From assembly GCF_058153355.1 (NCBI RefSeq), contig NZ_CM177019.1: a stretch of 64,000 nucleotides of DNA; one strand, 5' to 3'. A model generated the notes under the pieces. That model was given only the letters and a program-made list of their open reading frames with translations, did no database searches and had not been told where the DNA came from. Every line of letters begins with the position of its first letter. Within the stretch, counting starts at the first letter, position 1. The position numbers were made by a program, and so were the translations under genes. Shown here piece by piece: positions 5,829-43,480 of this stretch.

Positions 5829-5950
5829 GCAAGTTCAGAATTTTCCCAGCAGTTATTGCTAACCTTTGTGAGGTTGATGAAAAAAATATCGGCAGGAAAA
5901 GCAGGAAGTTGAGAAAAAGAAAATGCCCGACTAAGCGGGCATTCATAGAA

Positions 5951-6118
<168 letters not shown>

Positions 6119-27543: not shown

Positions 27544-29112
27544 TTAGCGTGCCGGCTGAGTAGTCGTGGAAGACTGCTCAAAGTGATAGCGACCGGTTTT
27601 CAGGCTGCTTGGGCCGAGGCGTGCAAACTTGAACATTAAGAACAATTCTGCCACCAGGAACAGGGTATACAGGCCGCAAATCAGCACCATCGAGAAGATG
27701 AGATCGCCTGCGGTCAGTGACGAGTTCGCTACAGCTGTCGGCAGCACTTCACCGATAGCCCAAGGCTGGCGACCATATTCAGCCACGAACCAGCCCGCTT
27801 CTACAGCAATCCACGGCAACGGAATACCGTACAATGCGGCGCGCAGCAGCCATTTTTTCTCGCCAATACGGTTGCGGATGACACTCCAGAAAGAGAGCGC
27901 GATGATTGCCAGCAGCAGGAAGCCACACGCCACCATGATACGGAACGCGAAGTACAGCGGCGCTACACGTGGAATGGAGTCTTTGGTTGCCTGTTGAATC
28001 TGCGCTTCAGTCGCATCCGCCACGTTTGGCGTATAGCGTTTCAGCAGCAGACCGTAACCGAGGTCTTTCTTCATGCTATTGAACTGGTCACGAACCGCCT
28101 GGTCGGTAGAACCAGAACGCAGTTGCTCGAGCAGAGAGTACGCCTTCATCCCGTTACGGATGCGTTCTTCATGCTGCACCATCAGCTCTTTCAGGCCGAT
28201 AACCGGAGTATCCACGGAACGCGTGGCGATAATGCCCAGTGCGTAAGGGATTTGGATCGCAAATTTGTTCGTCTGCTCATCCTGATCAGGAATACCGAAC
28301 AGAGTAAAGGCAGCAGGCGCAGGTTGCGTTTCCCACTCGGCTTCAATAGCAGCCAGTTTGGTTTTCTGCACGTCGCCCATTTCATAACCAGATTCATCAC
28401 CCAGAACAATAACAGACAGAACGGCAGCCATACCGAAGCTGGCAGCGATAGCAAAGGAGCGTTTAGCGAAGGCGAAGTCACGACCTTTCAGCATATACCA
28501 TGCGCTGATACCGAGGATGAACATCGCGCCAGTCACATAACCAGACGCTACCGTGTGAACGAATTTCACCTGAGCAACCGGGTTAAGCACCAGCTCGGAG
28601 AAGCTCACCATCTCCATACGCATAGTTTCAAAGTTGAAATCGGATGCGATTGGGTTTTGCATCCAGCCGTTCGCAACCAGAATCCACAGTGCGGACAGGT
28701 TTGAACCAAGCGCCACCAGCCAGGTGACACACATATGCTGAACTTTACCCAGACGATCCCAACCGAAGAAGAACAGACCTACAAAGGTGGATTCGAGGAA
28801 GAAGGCCATCAGACCTTCGATTGCCAGCGGCGCACCGAAGATATCCCCTACATAGTGGGAATAGTAAGACCAGTTAGTCCCGAACTGGAACTCCATGGTC
28901 AGACCGGTTGCCACACCCAGAGCGAAGTTGATACCAAACAACTTGCCCCAGAACTTGGTCATATCTTTATAAATCTGTTTGCCGGAAAGGACGTAGACCG
29001 TTTCCATAATGGCCAGCAGGAACGCCATACCGAGCGTCAGTGGCACAAAAAGGAAGTGGTACATCGCGGTCAAGGCAAACTGTAAGCGCGACAGTTCGAC
29101 TATATCTAACAT
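27544..29112 (-). CDS. cydA: cytochrome bd-I ubiquinol oxidase subunit I
   Basis: ORF 27544..29115; second Met ([28 protein letters not shown]...) gives 522 aa. Confidence 0.95.
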
Positions 29113-29115
29113 CAT

Positions 29116-29916
29116 GACTCCTTGCTCATCGCATGAAGACTCCGAGAGTGAACCCCGTTAGAAAGGGTCACACGCATGCCCCAATACAAAATTATTTGCT
29201 CGCCTCTATCGTTGCCATTTCATCAAAAGAGGAAAAGACAATGATAAAAAAGTTACAAACATGTTAATGAATAAACCAAATTGATCCCGTAATTATATTA
29301 CGCCGCAAAATCCTTACAATAAACAGGTTTTTATTGAGCAAATTTGCATTTTTCGACAGTGATCAATTTATAGCGAAATTGTCACGATCTCACCAATTTG
29401 ATCTACGACAATTTATCGTGTTTTGCAGATTTTTTTCAAGAATTAAAAATTGATTTATATCAAAACCAACCAAATGTGTTAATTATGTATAAACCATAGA
29501 TCATTGGTGATTTTATTGTTAATTTATTGTGAAATGTTTATGCAACACAATTATTACAATGAAAAGGTATAGATAAAAAACCAGTGTTTTATTTAACAGA
29601 ACCGCCTTATCCACTTTTTATAATACCAATTGATTAGAGTAGCCAATTTGTTGCTATTTTACATAACATATTTTTATCAAAGTTAATTGATTGTTGCCTT
29701 TATGAGCATCGCCGTAAGACCGCCATGTTATTGTTTCATTTGTAATAATCACCAATAAGTATCGATGAGAGAGATATCGCTTAACAGAGGCGACTATGTC
29801 TGCATGAACACAGGCAACTTTCGCCTGATAAACGAAAAATGAGCGATTTTTGCAAGTTAGTTTTTCTATAGCCGGGTACGCTGAGCGCCTCGCTTGATTA
29901 CAATGAGGTTGCTGCC
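29116..29916. promoter_or_regulatory. long AT-rich cydAB control region
   Basis: 801-bp AT-rich non-coding region upstream of cydA with multiple TTGAT-type half-sites. Confidence 0.6.
29450..29463. promoter_or_regulatory. FNR-type binding site
   Basis: Perfect TTGAT-TTAT-ATCAA palindrome about 340 bp upstream of cydA start. Confidence 0.6.
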
Positions 29917-30861
29917 ATGGGTCTTGATAATATAGGTTCTGTTGTCAATCGCTTCTCTGGTTGGCCATCAAATGATCCTCTAAAAACAGATAACGAATCA
30001 ATGACATCACCCGTGACTGTGCAGGTAATAAAGTTGATTGCCGCCATCCTTGACCCACATCGGATAGTCGTTGGTATCGATACACTTTACACAACGCAGC
30101 GCAAAACATTTACCTCAGAGGGTCAACAGCTCATTGAATCAGCATTGCAAACACTTCATGTGATGAATTTAAATAACCTGGAAACAAATCTCGATGAGGA
30201 AGGTCACTATCTGGCTTTTGGATATAACGTTGACACTCCTGACAGAATAACCGTTTCTGCTTATAATGAAAAAAAACCTTTCTGTTATGGCCAATGTCTT
30301 TTAATACAGGATGAAGAACCAGATTTATTTAACCTGGTAAAAATTAAAACCTTTGAAGCCAGGCATAATTATGTTTCTAAATTGATGAGCGATCCGGAAT
30401 TTATGTTTAAATTCAGTTATAGCGCCCAACAAAATAGATTAGAACCTCATCTTCTGGTTCCCACTTATTTCCCTCTGAAAACAAACCAACCGGTTACGCT
30501 AGAGGATGTACTGATACTTTATCGTTTCTTTAAAATGAATGGCGATTTTAATATATTAACATCAGATGAATACATGAGTATCATGACACCTCTGATGAAG
30601 TGTGAGCGTAGTGTCCACGACCATAACAGGTATGTGACGGGCAAAGATGCTCTTCTTCTGGACAATCCTCCGTCTGGTAACCAGATATATTTCCATATTT
30701 CCCCTGACGAATCAGCAACACTTGTCCTTTATTTTTCAGACAATAACCTTGAATCCTTCGTCTTTGAAAATGATATTCCGAGCCAGTATCGACATTTCAA
30801 AATGTTTACCAATTTAGCACTAGTTATTGATCAGTTAACCGACGCCAATCAAATACTTTAA
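29917..30861 (+). CDS. hypothetical protein, 314 aa, no family recognised
   Basis: Long ORF in AT-rich DNA with GAGG 9 nt upstream of ATG; no signal peptide, no TM segment and no motif I recognise; true start may be an internal Met. Confidence 0.5.
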   Translation: MGLDNIGSVVNRFSGWPSNDPLKTDNESMTSPVTVQVIKLIAAILDPHRIVVGIDTLYTTQRKTFTSEGQQLIESALQTLHVMNLNNLETNLDEEGHYLAFGYNVDTPDRITVSAYNEKKPFCYGQCLLIQDEEPDLFNLVKIKTFEARHNYVSKLMSDPEFMFKFSYSAQQNRLEPHLLVPTYFPLKTNQPVTLEDVLILYRFFKMNGDFNILTSDEYMSIMTPLMKCERSVHDHNRYVTGKDALLLDNPPSGNQIYFHISPDESATLVLYFSDNNLESFVFENDIPSQYRHFKMFTNLALVIDQLTDANQIL

Positions 30862-30942
30862 TTTTCTATATATCCCCTATGGTAAATATTACTAAACAAT
30901 ACCTGGGGATTAATTTTTATTACTCACGGAAAGATTTAAATA

Positions 30943-31365
30943 ATGATACCATCTCAGATTTCTTTCAATACTCTTCCTGTCAATGCAACATACGCTTCAG
31001 AGACAACAGTTGACACACAAAAATTCTCTGACATCCTCTACTCTGCGGGGTGTTCCCTAAAGGATCTGGCTTATCTGAGCAGATGTCTGGCATCAATACA
31101 TCCGACTATCGCCAAAAACATTTATGAAACAGAAAATCTCAGCGTTCAAAAATTACTGCATATTGATTGCCGTAGTACAAATGAAATCAAGATAAATATC
31201 TTTTTTGGTCAGCAACGAGAAGGATTAATTGAAATTAGTTCTGACACAGTCATTTTTTCGATACTGTCTTCATTGATTGACTCAGCTATTTCTGAACATC
31301 GACATCAAATCACCGTTAACGATTCAAATAATTCTGAACTATTTTATGAGGATTATACTGATTAA
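30943..31365 (+). CDS. hypothetical protein, 140 aa, acidic C-terminus
   Basis: ORF 81 bp downstream of the 314-aa ORF, same strand and same AT-rich composition; ends ...ELFYEDYTD. Confidence 0.45.
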   Translation: MIPSQISFNTLPVNATYASETTVDTQKFSDILYSAGCSLKDLAYLSRCLASIHPTIAKNIYETENLSVQKLLHIDCRSTNEIKINIFFGQQREGLIEISSDTVIFSILSSLIDSAISEHRHQITVNDSNNSELFYEDYTD

Positions 31366-31908
31366 ATCCACTCTGTGCGAACCTGTCCTGCATTTATGCC
31401 AGAAGTATTAGAATCTTTGCTTAACGTTACTCATACAGTAGCACCTTCATGTACTTCTCTTTTTTACGAAAAATCAAAAGAGCTAACAAAGGTCATTCTT
31501 CGCATGGATCATTAATTATTTGTTATTTTCAACATTATTTTTACATTAAGCATATATGAATTGCAGTGAAATTCGACTTAACTTTTATGAAATGCATTTA
31601 CTCATGGCTAAAAAATCTCCCCAAAATGCAAATTAGAAGTTGATCACAATTATCTCAATACATCAAATCAAGTTAATTTTAAAAATTTAACATTCATGAC
31701 ATTAGTTGACGTAACACGCTGAATTAAAATGAGAATTTAAAAACACACTTTAAACAATCATTTCCCGAAAGACATTTTGAAAATAGATCAATTGCAACAT
31801 TACGGTCAGATAAAGACACTCCTCTGATATTAAACCTGTGCCGTTATGAACGGCCATAAATACGACGTGTGTAACTTAATTTACTCTCTGTCTTACAAAG
31901 GATTACCC

Positions 31909-32358
31909 ATGAAGAAAGCAACACTTGTGATTGGCGTTATTGGCGCGGACTGCCATGCAGTAGGCAATAAAGTTCTGGACCGCGTTTTTAGCAACCATGA
32001 CTTCAGAGTCATTAATCTGGGCGTAATGGTCAGCCAGGACGAATATATTGATGCTGCCATTGAAACTGGCGCTGACGCGATTGTCGTCTCCTCTATCTAT
32101 GGGCATGGCGATATCGATTGTCTGGGCATGCGCGAACGCTGCATCGAGCGTGGGCTGGGTAACATCATGCTCTATGTGGGCGGTAACCTGGTGGTCGGAA
32201 AACATGACTTCGCTGACGTGGAAACCAAGTTCAAAGAGATGGGATTTGATCGCGTCTTTTCCCCAAGTCATGACTTAGAAGATGTTTGTCAGCTGATGGC
32301 CCACGATATCACCCAACGTCATGACGTTGATACTCGCATTCTTGAAGAGGCAATCTGA
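31909..32358 (+). CDS. glutamate mutase sigma (S) subunit, B12-binding
   Basis: ORF 31846..32358; start at ATG 31909 (AAGGA 8 nt upstream); [24 protein letters not shown]... with the DxHxxG cobalamin-binding motif (DCHAVG). Confidence 0.85.
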
Positions 32359-33746
32359 TGCAAATCGTCTCTGTCGATATTGGATCGACGTGGACCAAAG
32401 CAGCCCTCTTCACCCGGGAGGGGGACGCGTTAACGTTGGTTAACCACGTTCTGACCCCAACCACCACCCATCATCTGGCGAAAGGGTTTTTCTCCAGCCT
32501 GGACCAGGTGTTAAACGTAGATGATGCCCTCCCCCTGTTAAACAGTGGTGAGGTTGCATTGAAGTATTCCTCCTCTGCCGAAGGTGGGCTGGCGGTTGCC
32601 GCAATGGGATTGGTGCCTTCTATCACCCTGGAAACCGCGAAAGTAACCGCTCACTCTGCGGGTGCTAAAATTGCGCAATATTACGCCTACAAGCTGAACC
32701 GCCGTGATATCCAGGCACTGGAAGAAACGCAGCCCGATATTCTCTTGTTCACCGGCGGCACCGACGGCGGAGAAGAAAGCTACGGACTGAATAACGCCCG
32801 TGTGCTGGCAGAATCCAAACTCGACTGCGCCATTATTTATGCCGGAAACCGGGATATTCAGGATAAGGTGCAGGAGATCCTCGGGCATAAAGACCTGACC
32901 ATCGTCGACAACGTTCTGCCCGATCTTGACCATCCGAACCCTTTAGCTGCACGCCAGGCTATCTGCGACATATTCCTTAAACGCATCGTTAAAGGGAAAG
33001 GGCTGGATGTCATTGTTGATAAAACAGGCGAAGAACCAATGCCGACACCATGGACGGTCTTTGAACTGGTTAAGGCAATCAGTAACGTCGATCACAGCTG
33101 GAAAGAGTTCATGCTGATCGACATGGGCGGCGCAACCACCGATGTCTATTCCGCCTGTGCCAACACGCTCTCGCCCGACACTGTTTTACATGGCGTACCG
33201 GAACCCTTCGTAAAACGGACGGTGGAAGGCGATCTGGGAATGCGCGTCTCGGCAATGGTTGTTGGTGAAAGTGCGAAAGAGTTAGTCAGTGTGAATTTTG
33301 CTCAGCAACCCGCACAGTTGGACGCTTTTTATCATTACCTCCGTCATCTAGTCGCTCATCCCGACTACTTACCCGCGAATGCAGATGAAAAATATTTCGA
33401 TACCGTCCTGGCCGGACTGTGTGTGGGTTATGCCACCGAAAGACATGCGGGCACCAAAAAAGAGGTCTGCACCTGCGTCGGCAATGTCGATTTACAGATG
33501 GGACGTGATCTGACAACCGTGCGTAAAGTCGTGGGTTCCGGCGGATGGCTCTCACGTGCCAGTCAGTTCGATATGCATCACTGGTTGAAATACCGCGAGT
33601 TAAACGACGACGGTAAACGCATTCTCTTACCGACCGAATTTGAATATTACCGCGATTACCGGGGGCTATTACCACTGCTGGCAAACGTCGCCAGAGTCGA
33701 TCCGCTGGCCGCCGCGCGCACCAGTATTCAATGCTTAACCCTATAA
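32358..33746 (+). CDS. glutamate mutase L component (ASKHA-fold putative reactivase/chaperone)
   Basis: 462-aa ORF with TGATG overlap to the S-subunit gene; N-terminal [18 protein letters not shown] actin-like ATPase motif; sits between S and E genes. Confidence 0.75.
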   Translation: MQIVSVDIGSTWTKAALFTREGDALTLVNHVLTPTTTHHLAKGFFSSLDQVLNVDDALPLLNSGEVALKYSSSAEGGLAVAAMGLVPSITLETAKVTAHSAGAKIAQYYAYKLNRRDIQALEETQPDILLFTGGTDGGEESYGLNNARVLAESKLDCAIIYAGNRDIQDKVQEILGHKDLTIVDNVLPDLDHPNPLAARQAICDIFLKRIVKGKGLDVIVDKTGEEPMPTPWTVFELVKAISNVDHSWKEFMLIDMGGATTDVYSACANTLSPDTVLHGVPEPFVKRTVEGDLGMRVSAMVVGESAKELVSVNFAQQPAQLDAFYHYLRHLVAHPDYLPANADEKYFDTVLAGLCVGYATERHAGTKKEVCTCVGNVDLQMGRDLTTVRKVVGSGGWLSRASQFDMHHWLKYRELNDDGKRILLPTEFEYYRDYRGLLPLLANVARVDPLAAARTSIQCLTL

Positions 33747-33764
33747 CAATTAAGGCTGCAATCA

Positions 33765-35210
33765 ATGGAACTTCGAAATAAGAAATTAACCCATGACGAA
33801 TTCATGACCGAGCGGCAACAGGTATTGAAAACCTGGGAAACCGGCAAGGATGTTGAAAACTTTGAAGATGGCGTTAAATACCAACAAACCATTCCTGAGC
33901 ATAAACGCTTCTCTCATGCCCTGCTGAAAGCAGACAAGGAAGGTAAAACCCTTAGCCAACCGCGCGCAGGCGTGGCGCTGATGGACGAACACATCGAACT
34001 ACTGAAAACACTACAAGAAGAGTGCGATCTGCTGCCGAGCACTATCGATGCATATACCCGTCTGAATCGGTACGAAGAAGCGGCTGTAGGGATTAAAAAA
34101 TCCATCGAAGCCAGAACCTCTAAACTGAACGGTTTACCGGTAGTTAACCACGGCGTCGCAGCTTGCCGTCGCCTCACCGAAACTCTGCAAAAACCGCTAC
34201 AGATCCGCCACGGCACGCCAGATGCGCGTCTGCTGGCTGAAATCTCGATGGCCAGCGGCTTTACCAGTTATGAAGGCGGCGGCATTTCCTACAATATTCC
34301 GTATGCCAAGCGCGTAACGCTGGAAAAATCGATCCGCGACTGGCAGTACTGCGACCGTTTAATGGGGATGTATGAAGAACACGGGATCCGCATCAACCGC
34401 GAACCGTTTGGCCCACTAACGGGTACGCTGATCCCGCCGTTTATCTCGCACTCTATCGCGATAATCGAAGGCTTGCTGGCACTGGAACAGGGTGTGAAAT
34501 CTATTACCGTTGGTTATGGACAGGTCGGCAGCCTGACGCAGGATGTCGCGGCGATCCAGTCTCTGCGTGAACTTGCACACGAATACTTTCAGAGCTATGG
34601 CTATACCGACTATGAATTAAGTACCGTATTTCACCAGTGGATGGGCGGCTTTCCGGAGGACGAATCGAAAGCGTTCGCCATTATCTCCTGGGGTGCTGCC
34701 GTCGCGGGGATGTCTGGTGCTACCAAAGTCATCACCAAAAGTCCGCACGAAGCCTGGGGCATCCCGACTGCTGCTGCCAACATTCAGGGGCTAAAAGCCT
34801 CCCGCCAGATGCTCAACATGGTCAACGAGCAGAAATTCCCGCCGTGCCCGGCGGTTGAACTGGAAATTGAACTGATTAAGAGCGAGGTTCGCGCTGTACT
34901 GAACAAAGTGTTCGAACTGGGTAATGGTGATATTGCGCGCGGTACGGTGCTGGCATTTGAAGCGGGCGTACTGGATGTACCGTTTGCCCCAGCCGCCTGC
35001 AACGCAGGCAAAATTCTTCCGGTCCGTGACAACACCGGCGCGATACGCGTACTGGAAGCCGGAGCCGTTCCATTGCCAAAAGATATTCTCGACCTCCACC
35101 ACGATTACGTTGCTGAACGCGCACGCTTTGAAGGACGCCAACCGACATTCCAGATGGTTGTAGATGACATCAATGCTGTATCCCACAGTAAATTAATAGG
35201 AAGACCATAA
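33765..35210 (+). CDS. glutamate mutase epsilon (E) catalytic subunit
   Basis: 481-aa ORF; size and position (S-L-E-methylaspartase order) match the clostridial glutamate mutase operon as recalled. Confidence 0.8.
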   Translation: MELRNKKLTHDEFMTERQQVLKTWETGKDVENFEDGVKYQQTIPEHKRFSHALLKADKEGKTLSQPRAGVALMDEHIELLKTLQEECDLLPSTIDAYTRLNRYEEAAVGIKKSIEARTSKLNGLPVVNHGVAACRRLTETLQKPLQIRHGTPDARLLAEISMASGFTSYEGGGISYNIPYAKRVTLEKSIRDWQYCDRLMGMYEEHGIRINREPFGPLTGTLIPPFISHSIAIIEGLLALEQGVKSITVGYGQVGSLTQDVAAIQSLRELAHEYFQSYGYTDYELSTVFHQWMGGFPEDESKAFAIISWGAAVAGMSGATKVITKSPHEAWGIPTAAANIQGLKASRQMLNMVNEQKFPPCPAVELEIELIKSEVRAVLNKVFELGNGDIARGTVLAFEAGVLDVPFAPAACNAGKILPVRDNTGAIRVLEAGAVPLPKDILDLHHDYVAERARFEGRQPTFQMVVDDINAVSHSKLIGRP

Positions 35211-36451
35211 TGAAAATAAAACAGGCCCTTTTCACCGCTGGCTACTCTTCATTCTATTTCGATGACCAGCAGGCGATAAAAAACGGAGCGGGTCACGACG
35301 GCTTTTTTTATACCGGAGAGCCGGTAACACAGGGGTTTAACGCCGTACGTCAGGCCGGGGAGTGCGTTTCGGTTCAGTTGATTCTGGAAAACGGTGCGGT
35401 CGCCGTAGGCGACTGTGCTGCCGTACAGTATTCCGGGGCAGGCGGTCGCGATCCACTGTTCCTCGCAGAGCACTTTATTCCGTTCCTCAACGACCATATC
35501 AAGCCATTACTGGTAGGCCGCGATGTGGATGCTTTCCTGCCGAATGCCCGTTTCTTCGACAAATTGCGTATTGACGGAAACTTGCTGCATACCGCCGTAC
35601 GTTACGGATTATCACAGGCGCTGCTTGATGCTACCGCGCTGGCAACCGGCCGTCTAAAAACTGAAGTGGTCTGTGATGAATGGCAGTTGCCACGCGTGGC
35701 GGAATCCATTCCATTATTTGGTCAGAGCGGCGACGATCGATATATCGCTGTCGATAAGATGATCCTTAAGGGCATCGACGTGCTACCTCATGCGCTGATT
35801 AATAACGTCGAAGAGAAACTGGGCTTTAAAGGAGAAAAACTGCGCGAATATGTCCGTTGGCTATCCGATCGGATTCTAAGCAAACGCACCAGCGCACGCT
35901 ACCACCCTACCCTGCACATCGATGTATACGGCACTATTGGTCTGATCTTCGATATGGATCCGCTTCGCTGTGCGCAATACATCGCCAGTCTGGAAAAAGA
36001 GGCGCAAGGCCTGCCGCTCTACATTGAGGGGCCGGTCGATGCCGGTAACAAGCCCGATCAAATTCGCCTGCTGACCGCGATTACCAAAGAGCTGACGCGC
36101 CTCGGTTCCGGCGTGAAAATTGTGGCCGATGAATGGTGTAACACCTACCAGGATATTGTTGATTTCACTGATGCCGCCAGTTGCCACATGGTGCAAATCA
36201 AAACCCCGGATCTGGGCAGTATTCACAACATCGTCGATGCAGTTCTTTATTGCAACAGCCACAGCATGGAAGCGTACCAGGGCGGCACCTGCAATGAAAC
36301 CGATGTCAGCGCCCGCACGTGTGTCCACGTCGCCCTTGCCGCTCGCCCTATGCGTATGCTGGTAAAACCGGGGATGGGCTTTGACGAAGGCCTCGATATC
36401 GTCTTCAACGAAATGAATCGTACTATCGCGCTGTTGCAGGCTAAGGATTAA
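35210..36451 (+). CDS. mal: 3-methylaspartate ammonia-lyase (methylaspartase)
   Basis: 413-aa ORF MKIKQALFTAGYSSFYFDDQQAIKNGAGHDGFFYTGEPVT...; strong resemblance to recalled clostridial/Citrobacter methylaspartase (same length; conserved HMVQIKTPDLG, NETN and KPGMG blocks); TAATG overlap with E subunit. Confidence 0.9.
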   Translation: MKIKQALFTAGYSSFYFDDQQAIKNGAGHDGFFYTGEPVTQGFNAVRQAGECVSVQLILENGAVAVGDCAAVQYSGAGGRDPLFLAEHFIPFLNDHIKPLLVGRDVDAFLPNARFFDKLRIDGNLLHTAVRYGLSQALLDATALATGRLKTEVVCDEWQLPRVAESIPLFGQSGDDRYIAVDKMILKGIDVLPHALINNVEEKLGFKGEKLREYVRWLSDRILSKRTSARYHPTLHIDVYGTIGLIFDMDPLRCAQYIASLEKEAQGLPLYIEGPVDAGNKPDQIRLLTAITKELTRLGSGVKIVADEWCNTYQDIVDFTDAASCHMVQIKTPDLGSIHNIVDAVLYCNSHSMEAYQGGTCNETDVSARTCVHVALAARPMRMLVKPGMGFDEGLDIVFNEMNRTIALLQAKD

Positions 36452-36454
36452 CAA

Positions 36455-37825
36455 ATGGCTCGTTCTTTTAAAGTCTTATCGCCAACGGCAATCCTCGGGT
36501 ATGGATTCCCGGAAGAGAGCTTCCGCAAAGCGATGGCAGAATCGCCCGATCTGATCGCCGTTGATGCAGGCTCTTCCGATCCTGGCCCCCACTACCTCGG
36601 GGCGGGCAAACCGTTTACCGATCGCGCAGGGGTCAAACGCGATCTACGCTATATGATCACCGCAGGCGTGCAAAATAATATACCGGTGGTGATCGGAACG
36701 GCCGGCGGTTCTGGTGCAGCTCCACACCTGGAGTGGTGCCGAGAAATAATTCATGAGATTGCCCGGGAAGAGCACCTCGCGTTCTCGATGGCGCTGATCC
36801 CGGCAGACGTTGACAAAGCCATCGTCCACCAGGCGCTGGATAACGGCAAAATCACGGCGCTGGATTTTGTCCCGCCGTTAACCCACGACGCGATTGACGA
36901 AAGTACGTATATCGTCGCGCAAATGGGCGTCGAACCCTTCCAGCAGGCGCTGAAAGAAGGCGCGCAAGTGGTGCTGGGCGGGCGCGCTTACGACCCGGCC
37001 TGCTTTGCTGCGCTACCGATCATGCAAGGCTTTGATGAAGGTCTGGCGCTGCATTGTGGGAAAATCCTTGAATGCGCGGCAATCGCCGCAACGCCCGGCT
37101 CAGGCTCTGACTGTGCGATGGGCATCATTGATGACAACGGCTTTACGCTGAAGACATTTAATCCGAAGCGTAAATTTACCGAAACGTCAGCGGCTGCACA
37201 CACACTGTATGAGAAATCCGATCCCTACTTCCTGCCAGGACCTGGCGGCGTGTTGAACCTGAAAGGTTGCACATTTAAAGCGATCAATGATGGCGAAGTT
37301 TACGTCAGCGGTTCTAAGCATGAAGAAACGCCCTATGCCCTGAAACTGGAAGGTGCGCGGCGGGTGGGTTTCCGCTGTTTGACCATCGCCGGAACGCGCG
37401 ACCCGATCATGATCGCCGGGATCGATAACATCATCGATGAAGTCAAAACCAGCGTTTCGCGTAATCTGTCCTTAGACGATGACAGCATTCGCATCAATTT
37501 CCACCTGTACGGCAAAAACGGGGTGATGGGTAACCATGAACCGATGCAAACTGCCGGGCATGAGCTGGGGATTGTCCTTGATGTAGTTGCACCGACCCAG
37601 GAAATTGCCAACAGCGTTTGCTCGCTGGTGCGCTCTACCATGCTGCACTACGGCTATGAAAACCGCATCGCTACCGCAGGCAACCTGGCGTTCCCGTTCT
37701 CCCCTTCTGATATCCAGGGCGGGCCGGTATACGAATTTTCCATATATCACCTGATTGAAGCCAACGACGCTCTGCGTTTTGATTTCCATATTGAACAGGT
37801 GACGCCAGAAGGAGTTCAGGCATGA
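36455..37825 (+). CDS. conserved protein of unknown function, DUF1446 (AtuA-like), 456 aa
   Basis: ORF starts 4 nt after methylaspartase stop; family assignment from memory of AtuA-like proteins, not from a search. Confidence 0.6.
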   Translation: MARSFKVLSPTAILGYGFPEESFRKAMAESPDLIAVDAGSSDPGPHYLGAGKPFTDRAGVKRDLRYMITAGVQNNIPVVIGTAGGSGAAPHLEWCREIIHEIAREEHLAFSMALIPADVDKAIVHQALDNGKITALDFVPPLTHDAIDESTYIVAQMGVEPFQQALKEGAQVVLGGRAYDPACFAALPIMQGFDEGLALHCGKILECAAIAATPGSGSDCAMGIIDDNGFTLKTFNPKRKFTETSAAAHTLYEKSDPYFLPGPGGVLNLKGCTFKAINDGEVYVSGSKHEETPYALKLEGARRVGFRCLTIAGTRDPIMIAGIDNIIDEVKTSVSRNLSLDDDSIRINFHLYGKNGVMGNHEPMQTAGHELGIVLDVVAPTQEIANSVCSLVRSTMLHYGYENRIATAGNLAFPFSPSDIQGGPVYEFSIYHLIEANDALRFDFHIEQVTPEGVQA

Positions 37826-38139
37826 AACAGTCAATTGTCTCACTGGCGCAAGTCATTCGTTCGAAAAATGCCGGACCTTACGAACTGGTTTTAGATATTT
37901 TATTTAAAACGAAAGAAAACTATGAGCGAGTAAAATCATCAGGGCAATTAACCCCAGAACTGATTGCGCGCTTATATCATGTTGAACCTGACTTTATTCA
38001 TCGTATTGTCTGGTTTGATCCTTCTAACGCAGTAAAAATTGTCATGCCACGAGATATTATCTCCGGGAATGTAGGTGACAATGATGTCTATGGCGCACAG
38101 CAACATGCACCTTTATTAAATATGAGTTTCGATTTGTAA
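37822..38139 (+). CDS. small conserved protein, DUF4387-like partner, 105 aa
   Basis: ATGA overlap with the preceding ORF; AT-rich; DUF1446/DUF4387 pairing is from memory. Confidence 0.5.
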   Translation: MKQSIVSLAQVIRSKNAGPYELVLDILFKTKENYERVKSSGQLTPELIARLYHVEPDFIHRIVWFDPSNAVKIVMPRDIISGNVGDNDVYGAQQHAPLLNMSFDL

Positions 38140-38225
38140 AAATCCGAACACTTTTAGCCAACTGACATCCCGTCACTTATTGCAGCTCAACACTTCAGCT
38201 ATTTGTAAGGTTGTTATAGCAGGTA

Positions 38226-38251
38226 GATGCCTGAATCTCTATTCAGGCATC
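38226..38251 (+). other. perfect 11-bp-stem hairpin between the DUF4387-like gene and the transporter
   Basis: gatgcctgaat-ctct-attcaggcatc; followed by pyrimidine-rich sequence but no clean T-run. Confidence 0.4.
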
Positions 38252-38299
38252 CACTTCTCCTGATTCTGATTTATCGCCGTGCACCTGATGGAGGAAAAA

Positions 38300-39580
38300 A
38301 TGAAGAAAATAAGTTTAACCACGATGATTCTTTTGGCGCTGGTACTTGGAATGATTATCGGCGTAGTGCTCAATAACACTGCTTCACCGGAAACAGCAAA
38401 ACTCTATGCGCAAGAAATATCGATATTCACGACGATTTTCTTACGACTGATAAAAATGATTATCGCTCCGTTAGTGGTCTCTACCCTGGTGGTAGGTATT
38501 GCTAAAATGGGCGATGCCAAAGCCCTTGGTCGTATTTTTTCTAAAACACTCTTTTTATTTATTTGCGCCTCATTGCTGTCAATTGCCTTAGGCTTGATAA
38601 CGGTAAATTTCTTCATGCCAGGCACAGGAATTAATTTTGTTGCACACGGTGCCGAAACCACCGGAGTGGTCGCGTCAGAACCCTTTACACTAAAAGTATT
38701 TATTTCGCATGCTTTCCCCACCAGCATTGTCGATGCCATGGCGCACAATGAAATTTTGCAAATCGTGGTGTTCTCAATTTTCCTCGGCTGTAGCCTGACG
38801 GCGATTGGTGAGAAAGGCAGCGCCATCGTTCACGCCTTAGATTCGCTGGCACATGCCATGTTAAAGCTCACTGGCTACGTCATGCTCTTCGCTCCCCTGA
38901 CCGTATTCGCCGCTATTTCAGCATTGATTGCTGAACGAGGACTGGCAGTTATGGTGAGCGCCGGGATCTTTATGGGTGAATTTTATTTCACCATGTTATT
39001 ACTTTGGGTGCTGCTTATCGGTCTGGCCATCGTTTATGTCGGCCCCTGCATCAGACGCCTGACCCGCGCCCTTTCAGAACCCGCCCTGCTGGCATTTACC
39101 ACATCCAGTTCTGAAGCTGCTTTTCCGGGAACGCTTGAAAAACTGGAGCAATTTGGCGTTTCCCCCAAAATTGCCAGCTTTGTCTTACCCATTGGCTACT
39201 CATTTAATCTCGTTGGATCAATGGCCTACTGCTCCTTCGCCACAGTTTTCATCGCCCAGGCCTGCAATATCCATTTATCCATCGGTGAGCAAATCACCAT
39301 GCTGTTGATCCTGATGTTGACCTCGAAAGGAATGGCTGGCGTACCACGCGCCTCAATGGTGGTTATCGCCGCCACGCTCAACCAGTTCAATATTCCGGAA
39401 GCGGGGCTGATCTTGCTGATGGGCGTTGATCCGTTCCTTGATATGGGGCGTTCCGCGACAAACGTCATGAGCAACGCAATGGGCGCTGCGATGGTGAGTC
39501 GGTGGGAAGGCGAACATTTCGGCGAGGGTTGTCGGGGTAAAGCATTAAAACCCAATGAATCGAACGTTGCTCTGCCCTGA
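38300..39580 (+). CDS. dicarboxylate/amino acid:cation symporter (DAACS)-family transporter
   Basis: ORF 38279..39580; start at ATG 38300 (GGAGG 5 nt upstream); polytopic membrane protein resembling GltP/DctA-type symporters. Confidence 0.7.
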   Translation: MKKISLTTMILLALVLGMIIGVVLNNTASPETAKLYAQEISIFTTIFLRLIKMIIAPLVVSTLVVGIAKMGDAKALGRIFSKTLFLFICASLLSIALGLITVNFFMPGTGINFVAHGAETTGVVASEPFTLKVFISHAFPTSIVDAMAHNEILQIVVFSIFLGCSLTAIGEKGSAIVHALDSLAHAMLKLTGYVMLFAPLTVFAAISALIAERGLAVMVSAGIFMGEFYFTMLLLWVLLIGLAIVYVGPCIRRLTRALSEPALLAFTTSSSEAAFPGTLEKLEQFGVSPKIASFVLPIGYSFNLVGSMAYCSFATVFIAQACNIHLSIGEQITMLLILMLTSKGMAGVPRASMVVIAATLNQFNIPEAGLILLMGVDPFLDMGRSATNVMSNAMGAAMVSRWEGEHFGEGCRGKALKPNESNVALP

Positions 39581-39687
39581 GGGAGATCTTAAGCAATCAG
39601 AAGCCAATGACTACGCATTTTTATAAGCCGGATCATGAAGTTAGACGGCAATTAAGTAACACTAACGTTTAAGGTGAAAAGTGAAAT

Positions 39688-41340
39688 ATGTCCAAACCAT
39701 TTATCTGGCAAGAACCGTTTCTACAAAATAAAGACGGTACAGAATATACATTAATTAGCGATCAACATATTACAGTAACGGAATTAGACGGCGAAGAAGT
39801 AATAAAAATCGCTCCTGAAGCATTAACGCTGCTTGCCCGGCAGGCATTTTATGAAGCCTCTTTTTTCTTACGTTCCGCTCATTTGCAACAGGTCGCCAGC
39901 ATTCTTAACGATCCGCAGGCCAGCAGTAATGATAAATACGTTGCGTTGCAGTTATTACGTAATGCTGAAGTCTCAGCAAAAGGGGTATTACCCAACTGTC
40001 AGGATACCGGCACCGCAACTATTGTTGCCAGTAAAGGGCAACAGATATGGACCGGAGGCAACGACGCCGAAGCCTTAAGCAAAGGCATTTACACCACTTT
40101 TCAGGAAAATAATTTGCGCTTTTCACAAAATGCGCCGCTGGATATGTATACCGAAGTCAATACGTACACCAATCTACCGGCGCAGATTGATATCAGCGCC
40201 GTCGCTGGTGATGAGTACCATTTTCTCTGTATTAATAAAGGGGGCGGCTCCGCCAATAAAGCCGCACTTTATCAGGAAACCAAATCCTTATTGCAACCAG
40301 AAAAACTGACCGCATTTTTAATCGAAAAAATGAAATCGCTGGGCACCGCTGCCTGCCCGCCTTACCACATCGCCTTTGTCGTCGGAGGGCTTTCAGCCGA
40401 TCAAACCTTAAAAGTTGCCAAGCTGGCCTCTACGAAATATTACGACAATTTGCCCACCAGCGGAAACGAGCAGGGACAAGCATTCCGTGATATTGAGCTG
40501 GAAAAAGCGTTGCTCGAAGCCAGTCAGCAATTTGGTATTGGTGCGCAATTTGGGGGTAAATATTTCGCTCATGATATTCGCGTCATTCGTCTGCCGCGTC
40601 ACGGTGGCTCCTGCCCGATAGCTATGGCGCTCTCCTGTTCTGCCGATCGCAATATCAAAGCAAAAATTAACAAGCATGGTATCTGGCTGGAAAAACTCGA
40701 ACACAATCCGGGGCAATATATTCCAGCCTCACTGCGGGAAGAAAATCACGCGCAACATGTACAGCTGGATCTAAACCGTCCGTTGCGTGACGTGATGCAG
40801 GATCTCGCCAGATTACCGGTAGGCACCCGCGTGTCGTTAAGTGGTCCCATCGTAGTGGCGCGCGATATCGCCCACGCCAAAATAAAAGCGCGGCTGGATA
40901 GCGGCGAATCGATGCCGGATTATCTGAAGCATCATATTGTCTATTACGCTGGCCCGGCGAAAACACCGGAGAACATGGCCTGCGGTTCACTGGGTCCAAC
41001 CACGGGCGGTCGAATGGACGGTTATGTCGAAACCTTCCAGGCGGCTGGCGGCAGTCTGGTAATGTTATCGAAAGGTAACCGCAGCCAGCAGGTCACCGAT
41101 GCCTGTCACAAACATGGCGGCTTCAATCTGGGAAGTATTGGCGGTGCAGCTGCGTTACTGGCGCAAGAATATGTCAAAAGTCTGCGTTGCCTGGAATACC
41201 CGGAGCTGGGTATGGAAGCGGTGTGGATGATGGAAGTGGAAAATCTGCCCGCATTCATCCTGGTCGATGATAAAGGCAATAATTTCTTTAGTCAGTTTGA
41301 GCAGCAACACCGCTGCGCCAGTTGCCCTGCGGGACATTAA
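39688..41340 (+). CDS. fumD: class I (Fe-S) fumarate hydratase paralog, probable mesaconase/fumarase
   Basis: 550-aa ORF colinear with E. coli FumA/FumB as recalled ([70 protein letters not shown]); symbol fumD is from memory of the O157:H7 mesaconase. Confidence 0.8.
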
Positions 41341-41349
41341 GGAAAATGA

Positions 41350-41952
41350 ATGGAAGCGCGAATTTCAACTGAACGGCATGTGCAGCGCCAGCAGAAATTG
41401 AAGGAACAGGTCGATACGCGCGTCGCGGCGGCGATAGAGAAAAAAGGGATCTTGATTGTTTTCACCGGCAACGGCAAAGGGAAATCCACTGCCGCGTTTG
41501 GTACTGTGACGCGCGCGGTGGGTCATGGCAAAACGGTGGGGGTTGCGCAGTACATCAAGGGGCAATGGGACAACGGCGAATACAACCTTCTCCAGCCGCT
41601 GGGGGTTGAGTTTCATATTATGGGAACCGGTTTTACCTGGGAGACTCAGAACCGGCAAGCGGATATCGACGCGGCGAAAGAGGTCTGGTCGGAAAGCAAA
41701 CGGATGCTGGCTGACAAGCGTTACGACTTAGTGGTGCTTGATGAGCTGACCTATATGCTGGCTTACCATTATCTGGACACCGAAGAAGTGATCACTTCTC
41801 TGCAAAACCGCCCGGCACAACAAAGTGTCATTGTCACCGGACGCAGTTGCCACAGTCAGATATTAAAAATGGCGGATACGGTCAGCGAAATCCGCCCCGT
41901 CAAACATGCTTTTGATAACGGCATTCAGGCGCAGCCGGGTATCGACTGGTAA
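41350..41952 (+). CDS. cob(I)alamin adenosyltransferase (CobA/BtuR family)
   Basis: 200-aa ORF with P-loop GNGKGKST and close resemblance to E. coli BtuR as recalled (VFTGNGKGK.TAAFGT.TRAVGHGK, LDELTYM, ELRPVKHAF). Confidence 0.85.
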   Translation: MEARISTERHVQRQQKLKEQVDTRVAAAIEKKGILIVFTGNGKGKSTAAFGTVTRAVGHGKTVGVAQYIKGQWDNGEYNLLQPLGVEFHIMGTGFTWETQNRQADIDAAKEVWSESKRMLADKRYDLVVLDELTYMLAYHYLDTEEVITSLQNRPAQQSVIVTGRSCHSQILKMADTVSEIRPVKHAFDNGIQAQPGIDW

Positions 41953-41985
41953 TAACTGCGCCTGGCATCCCGCCAGGCGCAGGTT

Positions 41986-42891
41986 TTACATCTCCTGCGG
42001 TACGACCGATTTCGCCAGCAACCATTCACGAAATTGCTGCAAGTGCGGCGAGTCAGACTTCTCTTCCTGCCACGTCATAATAAAACGATTACCGGTACGA
42101 ATAGGCACATCACAGGGAATCACCATATCGCCACTATCCAAATCATGTTGAATAGCGAACCGTGGTAACAGCGCCACGCCGAGATTAGAGCGCACGGCGG
42201 CAATCAGCATTGAAAGCAAATCGAAACGTGGTCCGTTATTGACCAGCGGACTGCTAACGCCAGATAAAGCAAACCACTCTTCCCAGCCAGTAATACGGGT
42301 GCTTTGATGCAGAAGTGGTAACTCAGTAAGCAGTTCTGCCACTGAAAGTTTTTGATCGGACATTGCAAGCAAACTGCCGCTGCATACCGGCAAAATCTCC
42401 TCTTCAAAGAGATATTCTACTTCCGCCCAGGGCGCGCAAAAATTTTCGCGCATAATGACAGCATCGTACTCCCGATTAAGAAAATCGCCGTTATTAGCTA
42501 AAGAATGAATATTAACAATAATATCGGGATGTAACTTTGTGAATTCATGTAAATTTGGGATTAACCAGTGGGTACTAAACGTAGGATTAACGGCAAGTTC
42601 AATAACCTGAACCGTAGGCTGCCAGGTCATAATCGTATTGGTATCGCGTTCCAGCTTATTTAATGTTTCTTTTACTATCCCCAGGTAATACTTCCCTGCA
42701 TCATTAAGAAAAATGCGTTTTTTAGAGTGTGAAAATAGCGGAGTATGTAAAAATTCCTCCAGCGCACTTACTTGTCTGAATACAGCACTTTGGGTTAACG
42801 CTAACTCCTCTGCCGCTCTGGTATAGCTTTCATGACGTGCGACGACCTCAAAAGTCACCAGCAGCTCCGTTTTAGGTATTTTTCCTCGCAT
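41986..42891 (-). CDS. LysR-family transcriptional regulator
   Basis: ORF 41986..42921; start set at internal Met (MRGKIPKTELLVTFEVVARHESYTRAAEELALTQSAVFRQVSALEE, LysR HTH); 42921 is an alternative start; convergent with the adenosyltransferase gene, divergent from the RtcB-like gene. Confidence 0.8.
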   Translation of the reverse strand: MRGKIPKTELLVTFEVVARHESYTRAAEELALTQSAVFRQVSALEEFLHTPLFSHSKKRIFLNDAGKYYLGIVKETLNKLERDTNTIMTWQPTVQVIELAVNPTFSTHWLIPNLHEFTKLHPDIIVNIHSLANNGDFLNREYDAVIMRENFCAPWAEVEYLFEEEILPVCSGSLLAMSDQKLSVAELLTELPLLHQSTRITGWEEWFALSGVSSPLVNNGPRFDLLSMLIAAVRSNLGVALLPRFAIQHDLDSGDMVIPCDVPIRTGNRFIMTWQEEKSDSPHLQQFREWLLAKSVVPQEM

Positions 42892-43480
42892 AATGCCGTC
42901 CGTGAAAAAATAACAATTCAAAAATTATTTTATAAAAAACAGTAGCACTAATGAATATCATAATTCAAATAAACAAACCAGTCAGCTATATGTCTAACCA
43001 GGAAAATAAAGTGACAATAATCCTAAAACAGGAATTTCACCTCAGTTATCCGCATGCAATACTTTAAAGCTATTATTGCAAGAATATTATTCATATACAT
43101 GAATATACTCTAAATAAGTCAAGTTGCAGGAAGGGAACAAATAATGAATTTCCAGAAGCTTACATAAGTAAGTGACCTGGGTGAGCGAACATCGATGCAG
43201 CACATGCAACTTGAATTATGACAAGTATACAATGATAAATTTATATACCCTATGTTATATATTATCTATGTCCGGTTAGATTGAATGAGTCATAGCCTTA
43301 AAAGACTTCACAAAAGATAATTCCTCTTTAACAATAAGCCAGATTTACCACTTGTAAAACTTGCTATCGCCACATACACTACGCGCGTTTTCTTTCCCTT
43401 TTGCTGGCTGCTGACCGGAAAGACAAAATTACCCTCGCAATACAGGGGGTTGATTAACGTCTATATTTCAGGACAGCGTT

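Follow-up and report, generated by a model that had tools for sequence, protein, structure and literature searches.

The AT-rich gap upstream of the Escherichia coli glm operon is a composite control region with a predicted LysR-activated promoter

Why is the glutamate mutase operon of Escherichia coli preceded by a long stretch of AT-rich, gene-free DNA? In the window, the whole 64,000-nucleotide stretch of DNA analyzed here, the operon glmS-glmL-glmE-mal-atuA-like-DUF4387-SDF symporter-fumD-cobO occupies positions 31909–41952 on the plus strand, and residues 1–147 of GlmS match the NCBIfam family methylaspartate mutase subunit S. Between the stop codon of an upstream ORF of 140 amino acids, ending at 31365, and the glmS ATG at 31909 lie 543 bp without a gene (31366–31908). 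The first-pass annotation had described an AT-rich, non-coding gap of about 540 bp, and this description holds: at a GC content of 31.7%, the gap is more AT-rich than the window as a whole (50.2% GC) or the glm operon (51% GC), and it falls into the most AT-rich 1.2% of the 543-bp windows that the 64 kb contain. The plus strand of the gap is G-poor and C-rich, with a GC skew of -0.12 to -0.27. This glutamate-fermentation cluster is present in 1135 of 5426 complete E. coli genomes (about a fifth), O157:H7 included, and also in many opportunistic enterobacteria; Citrobacter amalonaticus and Morganella morganii are among the species reported to express the pathway. Literature searches with the locus tags ECs0761-0767 and Z0892-Z0897 and on the topic retrieved no transcript, ChIP or regulation data for the locus. 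Based on a comparison of about 55 Enterobacterales loci, we read the gap as the upstream control region of the glm operon (methylaspartate pathway), of two origins, and consider a weak promoter activated by a LysR-type regulator its likeliest explanation, with a probability of roughly 0.6.

The gap had been called unusually long. The length itself is correct, but it is not unusual for a glm operon: in other genera glmS and cydA are 845–1575 bp apart, without homologues of the two window ORFs in between, and in Yersinia glmS starts 520 bp from the gene before it. Likewise, the AT-richness is real but not limited to the gap, as the AT-rich tract extends from 29116 to about 31900 (2.8 kb) and takes in the cydA control region and two AT-rich ORFs. 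A horizontally acquired operon, as had been inferred, is not supported as the source of this composition, since the GC content of the operon is genome-like; the AT-rich DNA consists of control DNA and of a separate insertion with two ORFans.

This Escherichia-specific insertion or replacement covers 1.7 kb on the plus strand (29767–31510), has a GC content of 36–38% and carries two ORFan genes, encoding 314 (29917–30861) and 140 (30943–31365) amino acids on the same strand, together with a 145-bp 3′ flank. Neither ORF matches a family in Pfam, NCBIfam, PHROGs or PADLOC, homologues of both were found only in Escherichia and Shigella, exhaustive HMMER searches included, and their AlphaFold models, with a pLDDT of 41 and 36, are too poor for a fold search. 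A repeat search around the insertion found neither a target-site duplication nor terminal repeats. The boundary of the island was located relative to K-12 and bears on the composite origin of the gap. In two loci of the E. whittamii type that lack the ORFs (L004 and L005), homology to the window is confined to 29116–29766 and 31511/31616–31908. The flank at 31366–31510, the distal quarter of the so-called leader, is missing from both of these loci and from all other genera, contains no conserved feature and is the least conserved segment of the gap within E. coli lineages (74% invariant columns). It is followed by ancestral DNA restricted to Escherichia (31511–31629), where the local alignment with L005 begins at 31511 with 80% identity and which is not alignable with other genera. 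The flank is probably functionally inert, and the inert DNA probably extends to about 31629. The gap is thus a composite of the flank of an insertion, Escherichia-only ancestral DNA and an ancient control region (31630–31908), the predicted promoter/operator part, which is common to Enterobacterales.

Within this ancient part, a weak promoter and a strongly conserved, putative protein-binding block are predicted about 80–155 bases upstream of glmS, by which the likely promoter is narrowed to about 75 bp. The predicted -35 hexamer TTGCAA (31792–31797) and -10 hexamer GACACT (31815–31820) lie on the plus strand. In all 47 loci analyzed by script, a TTGnnn follows directly after ATCAA and the -10 hexamer comes exactly 17 bp after it, and the same ATCAA-TTGnnn-N17-NANANT layout was recognized by eye in Morganella, Hafnia and Yokenella. 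The -10 variants (GACACT, GAAACT, CACACT, CACATT, CATATT and a single CATCGT) always keep A2 and T6. Mean pairwise identity, computed among 11 genus representatives, amounts to 0.90 for the -10 hexamer, compared to 0.40–0.46 for the spacer, the UTR and the DNA between the sites, and 0.60 for the third codon positions of glmS; the spacer (0.45) is fixed in length and unconserved in sequence. With 7 of 12 positions matching the sigma-70 consensus and a spacing within 16–18 bp, the two hexamers would form a weak promoter of the sigma-70 type. Its start is predicted near 31827 (31826–31828) from the position of the -10 hexamer, giving a 5′UTR of about 82 nt. The hexamers are absent from the list of a consensus promoter scan, the promoter-like sites of which occur at chance frequency in any case. 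Just 3′ of the predicted start, the motif TATTAA (31828–31834, plus strand) is conserved among Enterobacteriaceae (mean pairwise identity 0.79); Yersiniaceae and Morganellaceae do not share it. The identity is 0.82 in the region of the ribosome-binding site (31897–31911, plus strand), with the Shine-Dalgarno sequence AAAGGA at 31897–31902 and the glmS start codon at 31909–31911.

With a start predicted this close to the ATG (about 82 nt), the promoter would have most of the gap upstream of it, and the name leader, under which the gap had been described, does not suit it. A long, structured 5′ leader with a cobalamin riboswitch, another riboswitch or an attenuator would nevertheless be biologically sensible for this operon, because the mutase depends on adenosylcobalamin and a gene for a corrinoid adenosyltransferase belongs to the cluster; the predicted 5′UTRs of 150–250 nt in Yersinia and Budvicia also speak for it. 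The first-pass annotation had seen no cobalamin riboswitch by eye, and covariance models lead to the same result: an Rfam cmscan of 29000–32600 on both strands (E <= 10) gave only four chance-level matches to unrelated families, and 11 loci of other Enterobacterales families gave no match at gathering score. The folding energy is no better than that of shuffled sequences (z = -0.37 for 110 nt and +0.07 for 570 nt), RNAalifold found no consensus structure in the 5′UTR (consensus energy -0.08 kcal/mol, four trivial pairs), and a named-stem count for the candidate 5′UTR stem detected no covariation. The minimum free energy fold contains a short hairpin, GCCGTT-ATG-AACGGC (31840–31854, plus strand), which is Escherichia-specific and shows neither conservation nor covariation in other genera; a terminator-like hairpin was not detected. 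Moreover, no other part is less conserved between genera than the UTR (identity 0.40), which also seems to tolerate ERIC-like insertions in two species, the BLAST similarity to the ERIC-like element of the window being limited to a short core. What the gap shares with known cobalamin riboswitch leaders (RF00174; btuB, cob) is context only, i.e., a long untranslated stretch before adenosylcobalamin-dependent genes, whereas it differs from them in covariance-model match, in conserved structure and in a predicted transcript that begins so close to the ATG. We therefore regard a riboswitch or attenuator as extremely improbable; the gap is an ordinary but so far undescribed upstream control region, not a long RNA leader.

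The first-pass annotation had also suggested an unannotated small ORF or sRNA. ORFs of 26–55 amino acids do exist on both strands of the gap, a 35-residue antisense frame stays uninterrupted in every E. coli lineage, and the locus tags of Sakai skip ECs_0765 between glmS and the 140-residue ORF, suggesting that an ORF was formerly annotated there. Yet the 55-residue ORF of Sakai and two other loci (L002 and L003) is shortened by indels to 26–28 residues in the window and in L001, and the antisense frame lacks a conserved start, and its ends vary across genera. Conservation is uniform over the 21-bp block that we describe below, third positions of the antisense frame included, which is not a coding pattern. 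None of the small ORFs has a Pfam match, no intrinsic terminator was found in a scan of the gap, and neither an excess of promoters nor a structure signal was seen. A hidden small protein or sRNA is thus very improbable, and the view of the gap as non-coding regulatory DNA is supported. Alternatively, the gap could lack a promoter altogether, and transcription of the two upstream ORFs would simply continue into the operon; both lie on the same strand as glmS, without a detected intrinsic terminator in between. The promoter/operator layout is, however, kept in about 50 loci that do not have these ORFs, including loci where glmS is divergent from cydA, and the C-rich, G-poor and untranslated plus strand of the gap would favor Rho-dependent termination of such a transcript. 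Read-through as the source of glm transcription is accordingly improbable.

The predicted -35 hexamer is adjoined and overlapped by a conserved block of about 40 bp (31753–31795), invariant across Enterobacteriaceae, in which we place the candidate proximal operator (31753–31791, plus strand), ending in the invariant TTTTGAAAATAGATCAA. The mean pairwise identity reaches 0.95 for 31775–31797 and 0.68 for 31753–31774, both above the value for the third codon positions of glmS. Within E. coli, operator and promoter together have 96% invariant columns compared to 74% in the distal part. The 48-mer at 31753–31800 is 99–100% identical in 1121 of the 1135 E. coli genomes, while the entire gap is just 90–95% identical in 1130 of them. 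One copy of the 21-mer TTTTGAAAATAGATCAATTGC is present in the window, where none is expected. Each of the 38 Enterobacteriaceae loci, like the Sakai locus (L082), contains a single copy of the 16-bp core GAAAATAGATCAATTG, always upstream of glmS. A recognizable variant of the block is carried by Yersinia, Budvicia, Hafnia, Morganella and Yokenella. Searches for a second copy of the motif were negative for the rest of the window, the rest of the E. coli genomes, Trabulsiella, the DNA upstream of the symporter, fumD and regulator genes, and the intergenic region between the LysR-type regulator (LTTR) gene and sumT of Yersinia.

The block contains the dyad (T/C)ATTTTGAAAATA, a T-N11-A pattern centered on G31779. 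In most Enterobacteriaceae genera this dyad (6-1-6) reads TATTTTGAAAATA; the window has an imperfect version, CATTTTGAAAATA. Only the right part, AATAnATCAATTG, persists in Yersiniaceae and Morganellaceae, and the left arm, which these two families do not retain, also differs between Enterobacteriaceae (TTTTTT, GCTTTT). The regulatory site of an LTTR is typically found around -65; the dyad center, at about -48 from the predicted start, is located nearer to the promoter. T-N11-A is the pattern recognized by LTTRs (PMC11495319), and the sites of GcvA follow it as well (PMC3658693).

A GcvA-like LTTR is encoded at the other end of the cluster (41986–42891, minus strand). This orthologue of ECs0755, with HTH_1 and LysR_substrate domains, lies about 10 kb from the glmS promoter in E. 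coli, in convergent orientation with cobO. Its best NCBIfam match is the GcvA subfamily, at a score of 221.5 that stays below the cutoff of 288, the third-best being DsdC, and its best PDB match is GcvA (8y6u). An orthologue accompanies the glm cluster in Enterobacter (at the same position), in five Yersinia species (inside the cluster) and in Yokenella (5 kb upstream). In Rhodoferax (L055) and Aromatoleum (L071), homologues with 42–45% identity are divergent from glmS, an arrangement seen neither in the window nor in other Enterobacterales. Trabulsiella has a 68%-identical homologue without a glm cluster within 10 kb, at a locus full of IS elements. From the pattern of the dyad and the linkage of the gene we infer that the conserved block is bound by the LysR-type regulator of the cluster, the predicted activator of the weak promoter. 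When its effector is present, the regulator would bind the block and recruit RNA polymerase to an otherwise poor promoter.

Such an organization is not without precedent. The gcvTHP operon of E. coli depends on a LysR-type activator with promoter-proximal and far-upstream sites and receives input from Lrp and CRP. In the work of Wilson, Urbanowski and Stauffer from 1995, GcvA site 1 is reported at about -69 to -34, with further sites at about -214 to -271. Similarly, the glm locus has a proximal block at about -74 to -32 and a distal site near -186 within an upstream region of about 300 bp, its regulator is GcvA-like, and both systems control amino-acid catabolism. On the other hand, the recognition core CTAAT of GcvA is missing from the block, the regulator scores below the GcvA cutoff, and the distal site does not repeat the proximal motif but looks like a CRP site. 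DsdC/dsdXA and TdcA/tdcABCDEFG are likewise amino-acid catabolic operons of E. coli that are activated by a LysR regulator and CRP, in the case of tdc also anaerobically. The glm locus resembles them in its predicted weak promoter, its linked candidate LysR-type activator, its CRP-like site and a role in anaerobic or oxygen-limited catabolism, although in both of them the regulator gene adjoins the target promoter instead of lying about 10 kb away at the opposite end of the cluster.

The distal site is the 22-mer AAATTAGAAGTTGATCACAATT (31630–31651, plus strand), with an identity of 0.76 among the 11 genus representatives versus 0.26–0.46 in its flanks. The half-site string quoted in the first-pass annotation, ttgatcacaattatctcaa, is present at 31640–31658, and the string singled out there, TTGATCACAA, falls inside this element, which is truly conserved across genera; the element GATCACAA recurs in Yokenella at a similar distance. 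The 22-mer contains the half-sites TTAGA (31633–31637) and TCACA (31644–31648) with N6 between them. In agreement with the earlier statement, consensus searches of the gap detected neither an FNR nor a CRP palindrome free of mismatches; the sole perfect FNR site, TTGATTTATATCAA, is located on the cydA side (29450–29463). Nevertheless, FNR and/or CRP could control the operon directly through the TTGAT- and TCACA-like half-sites, without a dedicated regulator, and expression would then be anaerobic or catabolite-dependent. The CRP-like 22-mer, with its perfect TCACA half kept across genera, the extra perfect CRP palindrome upstream in Yokenella loci and the ATCAA at 31787–31791, positioned like the promoter-proximal half of a class II site, are all in line with this explanation, as is the enterobacterial methylaspartate ammonia-lyase activity that, in the 1997 work of Kato and Asano, reportedly appears under oxygen limitation.

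The CRP-like site (31633–31648) matches 8 of 10 core positions (2 mismatches) and 15 of 22 positions of the full site, a quality that is not above chance frequency in the window, and its left half is weak; it is, however, conserved across genera. Counted from the predicted start (31827), its center at 31640.5 lies at about -186, which is not one of the standard activating positions such as -41.5, -61.5 and -71.5. In the case of FNR, the best match in the gap (31640–31653) has two core mismatches, is found at chance frequency in the window and is not kept in other genera, and no class II palindrome TTGAT-N4-ATCAA that is conserved in orthologous promoters was found near -41.5. The conserved block itself has the geometry TTGA-N7-TCAA in Enterobacteriaceae and TGA-N7-TCA in Yersinia, with an unconserved left half, whereas FNR and CRP sites have N6, one base shorter. 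The FNR control that had been suggested is thus not borne out, and control by FNR and/or CRP in place of a dedicated regulator is unlikely. Under LysR-type activation, CRP may still add catabolite control from the distal site.

A further explanation had been silencing by H-NS or a similar protein. In its pure form, the horizontally acquired AT-rich DNA would be coated with H-NS, there would be no specific operator, and expression would reflect relief from H-NS only. The AT content of the gap is well above the genome average, as expected for H-NS targets, the gap is continuous with the 2.8-kb AT-rich tract, and its distal 145 bp derive from an Escherichia-restricted insertion. In the only study that looked for such conditions, none of those tried induced these genes in E. 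coli O157:H7 (PMC4682846), as would be expected of a weak promoter that depends on an activator and may be silenced. AT-richness alone, however, leaves unexplained why a 21-bp block is invariant across genera and why the hexamers are spaced by exactly 17 bp across the order. In addition, the GC content of the operon is genome-like, and the high-affinity H-NS motif TCGWTWAATT is not found in 31366–31908 with up to one mismatch, its nearest occurrence being at 29410–29419. A literature search returned no paper linking glutamate mutase and H-NS. The locus shares with H-NS-silenced islands an AT-rich tract in a genome of 50% GC, a lineage-restricted ORFan insertion and an operon that is silent in the laboratory (PMC4682846), and differs from them in an operon body of 51% GC, in the lack of a high-affinity motif in the gap and in an ancient proximal control region under sequence-specific constraint. 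Pure silencing is consequently a quite unlikely explanation. H-NS binding is, by contrast, compatible with LysR-type activation as an added layer: silencing is consistent with the AT-richness and with the lack of expression in O157:H7, and it may be superimposed on activator control. In E. coli, the promoter would then probably be held silent by its AT-rich surroundings, through H-NS or a protein like it, until the activator comes into play.

The reading of the annotation changes accordingly: the gap holds no riboswitch, long leader or hidden gene, its AT-richness stems from control DNA and an ORFan insertion, and what is left is an otherwise conventional, predicted activator-dependent promoter region with a candidate operator and a candidate dedicated regulator. 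A bolder proposal, which we put forward tentatively and would sooner doubt than accept, is that an uncharacterized, effector-sensing, GcvA-like LysR regulator, with the block of about 40 bp as its operator, acts as the master switch of enteric B12-dependent glutamate fermentation, and that this switch is held off in E. coli by the ORFan insertion and the AT-rich surroundings. If true, this would explain the failed induction in O157:H7, and the identity of the effector would reveal the gut signal that activates the pathway.

Other candidate binding proteins for the conserved block were considered as well. By eye, it does not fit the consensus of sigma-54, IHF, ArcA, NarL, Lrp, ArgR, Cra, Fur or OmpR sites. 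A pap-like switch by Dam methylation of the GATC sites at 31642 and 31786 is unlikely, since the distal GATC is missing in Klebsiella and Salmonella and the proximal one in Yersinia and Morganella. Between the distal 22-mer and the block, a minor motif, AACACGCTGAAT (31715–31726, plus strand), with the pattern AAC-N4-TGAT, is weakly conserved (mean pairwise identity 0.57 versus 0.42–0.46 in its flanks).

The 543-bp gene-free gap at 31366-31908, between a 140-aa ORF and glmS of the glutamate mutase operon, is as AT-rich as the first-pass annotation had described: its GC content of 31.7%, compared to 50.2% for the window, places it among the lowest 1.2% of equally long stretches. AT-richness extends beyond the gap, from 29116 to about 31900. 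The tract takes in the AT-rich control region of cydA (27544-29115, minus strand) and two ORFs on the same strand as glmS, for hypothetical proteins of 314 aa (29917-30861) and 140 aa (30943-31365), with a GC content of 36-38% compared to 51% for the operon proper. The operon glmS-glmL-glmE-mal-atuA-like-DUF4387-SDF symporter-fumD-cobO (31909-41952) is followed by a convergent LysR-type regulator gene (41986-42891, minus strand), an rtcB homologue (43481-44878) and, last in the gene order, sucDCBA; the LysR and rtcB genes flank an ERIC-like repeat (~43150-43230). This is the 'glutamate fermentation' cluster of E. coli O157:H7, in which FumD is ECs0757 (PMC4682846). Compared to K-12, the island spans 29489-44870 and takes the place of mngR-mngA-mngB between cydA and sucD. 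Since the glm operon is found at the same cydA-adjacent site in several genera, the locus may have been inherited from an ancestor and differentially lost, and not acquired recently.

A GlmS scan with one genome per species yielded 80 loci. In Klebsiella, most Citrobacter, Salmonella enterica subsp. arizonae, Pseudescherichia and two Escherichia lineages without the ORFs, glmS is directly divergent from cydA at a gene-free distance of 845-1575 bp, and in Yersinia 520 bp separate it from the preceding gene. A long upstream region is thus the norm for the glm operon. The two ORF-less Escherichia loci share homology with the window over just two segments, 29116-29766 and 31511 or 31616 to 31908, limits that mark 29767-31510 as an insertion or replacement, the source of both ORFs and of the gap's first 145 bp. 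Even by exhaustive HMMER searches, homologues of the two ORFs were confined to Escherichia and Shigella and no family could be assigned; their AF2 models have low confidence (pLDDT 41 and 36, respectively) and give no fold assignment. With a dN/dS of 0.26-0.37 in comparisons between E. coli lineages, both look like real genes. One lineage carries a 314-aa ORF allele of ~50-66% identity and lacks most of the 140-aa ORF, a full-length homologue of the former has 62% identity, and frameshifted variants of the latter exist.

When the 290 bp preceding glmS in 28 taxa are aligned, sharply bounded conserved blocks stand out from AT-rich DNA that is otherwise unalignable. Mean pairwise identity among 11 genus representatives, with the third codon positions of glmS (0.60) as a reference, is 0.76 for a distal 22-mer (31630-31651), 0.68 for the 5' part of a candidate operator (31753-31774), 0.95 for an invariant block plus the predicted -35 (31775-31797), 0.45 for the spacer (31798-31814), 0.90 for the predicted -10 plus the next two bases (31815-31822), 0.79 for TATTAA (31828-31834), 0.40 for the remaining UTR (31835-31890) and 0.82 for the RBS region (31891-31908). 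All 38 Enterobacteriaceae loci and Sakai carry a single copy of the 16-bp core GAAAATAGATCAATTG, upstream of glmS, and the window has no other. The gap is present in 1135 of 5426 complete E. coli genomes, always with the same two upstream ORFs. Here the 48-mer 31753-31800, one copy per genome, is 99-100% identical in 1121 of the 1135, while the whole gap is just 90-95% identical in 1130; among E. coli lineages 96% of the columns in 31753-31834 are invariant, compared to 74% in 31366-31510. One of the 1135 copies of gap and operator lies on a plasmid record and not on a chromosome.

A consensus scan for promoters gave matches at chance level. The layout ATCAA, TTGnnn, 17 bp, hexamer is found in every one of 47 loci scored by script and, by reading, also in Morganella, Hafnia and Yokenella. 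The spacer is wholly different in sequence between genera but constantly 17 bp long, and the hexamer (GACACT, GAAACT, CACACT, CACATT, CATATT and, in one locus, CATCGT) has A as its second and T as its sixth base in all cases. In the window, the predicted -35 TTGCAA (31792-31797) and -10 GACACT (31815-31820) match the sigma-70 consensus at 7 of 12 positions, and we read them as a weak sigma-70 promoter starting near 31827. Most of what had been called a long leader therefore lies upstream of the predicted promoter. The predicted 5'UTR measures ~82 nt in the window; Enterobacteriaceae have 58-86 nt, whereas that of Yersiniaceae and Budviciaceae is longer, at 150-250 nt. Literature searches found no publication on this promoter, operator or regulator; the predicted promoter region will not surprise a specialist, but together with the operator it is useful to anyone wanting to turn the pathway on.

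The conserved stretch 31753-31795 occupies about -74 to -32 from the predicted start, abutting and overlapping the -35. At a poor promoter, an activator footprint is expected over such a stretch, and the conserved stretch would be this footprint. Anaerobic control had been proposed for the gap. The block contains TTGA-N7-TCAA, which is one base too long for FNR/CRP geometry, and the promoter does not belong to the class II FNR type. Consensus searches agreed with the earlier reading that the gap has no perfect FNR or CRP palindrome. The 64-kb window has a single perfect FNR palindrome, TTGATTTATATCAA (29450-29463), in that part of the cydA control region which is homologous to K-12; it is presumably a cydAB FNR site.

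In most Enterobacteriaceae the block also includes the dyad TATTTTGAAAATA with a T-N11-A pattern; its left arm is variable, the dyad is imperfect in the window, and families outside Enterobacteriaceae keep only the right part, AATAnATCAATTG. T-N11-A is the pattern type recognized by LysR-type regulators (PMC11495319), including GcvA (PMC3658693), and the cluster's own regulator is GcvA-like. Its relatives occur at the same cluster end in Enterobacter (85% identity), within the glm cluster in five Yersinia species (62-65%), 5 kb upstream of it in Yokenella (57-58%) and directly divergent from glmS in Rhodoferax and Aromatoleum (42-45%), but also in an unrelated context on metagenomic contigs (43%) and at an IS-disrupted Trabulsiella locus without glm genes (68%). 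Linkage of the regulator gene to the operon agrees with a LysR-controlled promoter; a divergent arrangement of the two is absent in Enterobacterales. No second motif copy was found near the regulator gene or elsewhere in the window, Trabulsiella, the Yersinia LTTR-sumT region or the E. coli genomes, so the assignment draws on linkage and site geometry; we put the probability that this regulator acts at the operator at roughly 0.4. The nearest analogues are the LysR-plus-CRP-controlled amino-acid catabolic promoters of gcvTHP (GcvA), dsdXA (DsdC) and tdc (TdcA).

The distal 22-mer AAATTAGAAGTTGATCACAATT (31630-31651) includes the string singled out in the first-pass annotation, which is indeed present (31640-31658). 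Of its 22 positions, 15 agree with the CRP consensus (the TCACA half is perfect, the TTAGA half weak), a resemblance that alone is no better than chance. As a candidate CRP-like site the 22-mer is credible because it is conserved across genera with fixed internal spacing; its distance from the predicted start, about -186, is atypical for CRP. Non-Escherichia genera have a conserved CCGTTA-N6-TCACA ~60 bp further upstream, which Escherichia lacks. Yokenella has a GATCACAA element at a similar distance, and perfect CRP palindromes lie ~290 bp upstream of glmS in Enterobacter sp. ENT03 (TGTGATTGAAATCACA) and Yokenella regensburgei (TGTGATTGATATCACA), farther from the gene than both the GATCACAA element and the conserved promoter.

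A weak, activator-dependent promoter in 2.8 kb of 32-38% GC DNA is consistent with the report that no tried condition induced the glutamate mutase cluster genes in O157:H7 (PMC4682846). H-NS-type silencing fits this report likewise; the gap has no high-affinity H-NS motif, and no paper on H-NS at the glutamate mutase locus was found in the literature searched. Silencing leaves the sequence-specific conservation unexplained; it is better seen as a possible extra layer than as a rival to the promoter and operator.

On the evidence available, the gap is neither an RNA element nor a hidden gene. In line with the doubt already expressed about a cobalamin riboswitch, an Rfam covariance scan at E <= 10 gave only chance matches to unrelated families, and 11 loci (Yersinia, Morganella, Hafnia, Budvicia, Yokenella and relatives) gave nothing at the gathering score. 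Folding is no better than for shuffled sequence (z-score +0.07 for a 570-nt and -0.37 for a 110-nt RNA), the 5'UTR alignment of 23 taxa has no consensus structure, and the single stem proposed by eye lacks covariation. Apparent ERIC-like inserts in the predicted 5'UTR of Citrobacter amalonaticus S646 and Budvicia aquatica (L010 ~5880-5970; L038 ~5900-5980), which extend it to about 190-250 nt, would, if real, argue against a structured leader; they were recognized by eye from a ...GCAAC(T/C)TGAAGTATGAC core, and BLAST against the window element recovers the short core only. The suggested small ORF or sRNA fares no better, as the gap contains no terminator-like hairpin and its reading frames are cut by indels or lack a conserved start. 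A 55-aa ORF in Sakai and two other lineages is shortened by indels to 26-28 aa in the window as well as in its nearest relative. In Sakai (NC_002695.2, 853164-853710) the locus tags pass from ECs_0764 (glmS) to ECs_0766; an ORF seems to have been annotated there and since withdrawn, and ECs_0765 was probably this 55-aa ORF (MNCSEIRLK...), frameshifted in the window. An antisense 35-aa frame was rejected as a gene, its start not being conserved across genera and its conservation not codon-like. An in-frame ATG in the 5'UTR hairpin loop would extend GlmS by 21 residues (170-aa ORF, 31846-32358); it is not conserved beyond Escherichia, and the annotated start at 31909 has a conserved Shine-Dalgarno.

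Two further observations concern the cluster itself. In Yersinia (L042, L045, L046, L048, L049; 2400-6000), the cluster is rearranged and has cobO-fumD-LysR on the minus strand, followed by a uroporphyrinogen-III methyltransferase-like gene, a gene for a 286-aa kinase-like product, which from its translation reads as a putative L-threonine (PduX-like) kinase, and glmS; a conserved dyad, ATAGCCTGCTAT, adjoins the LysR start and could be an autoregulatory site. The AtuA-family and DUF4387 genes (36455-38139) come after the methylaspartate ammonia-lyase gene in Enterobacterales and also in many clusters of Spirochaetes, Lentisphaerae and Betaproteobacteria, which suggests an unassigned conserved pathway step.
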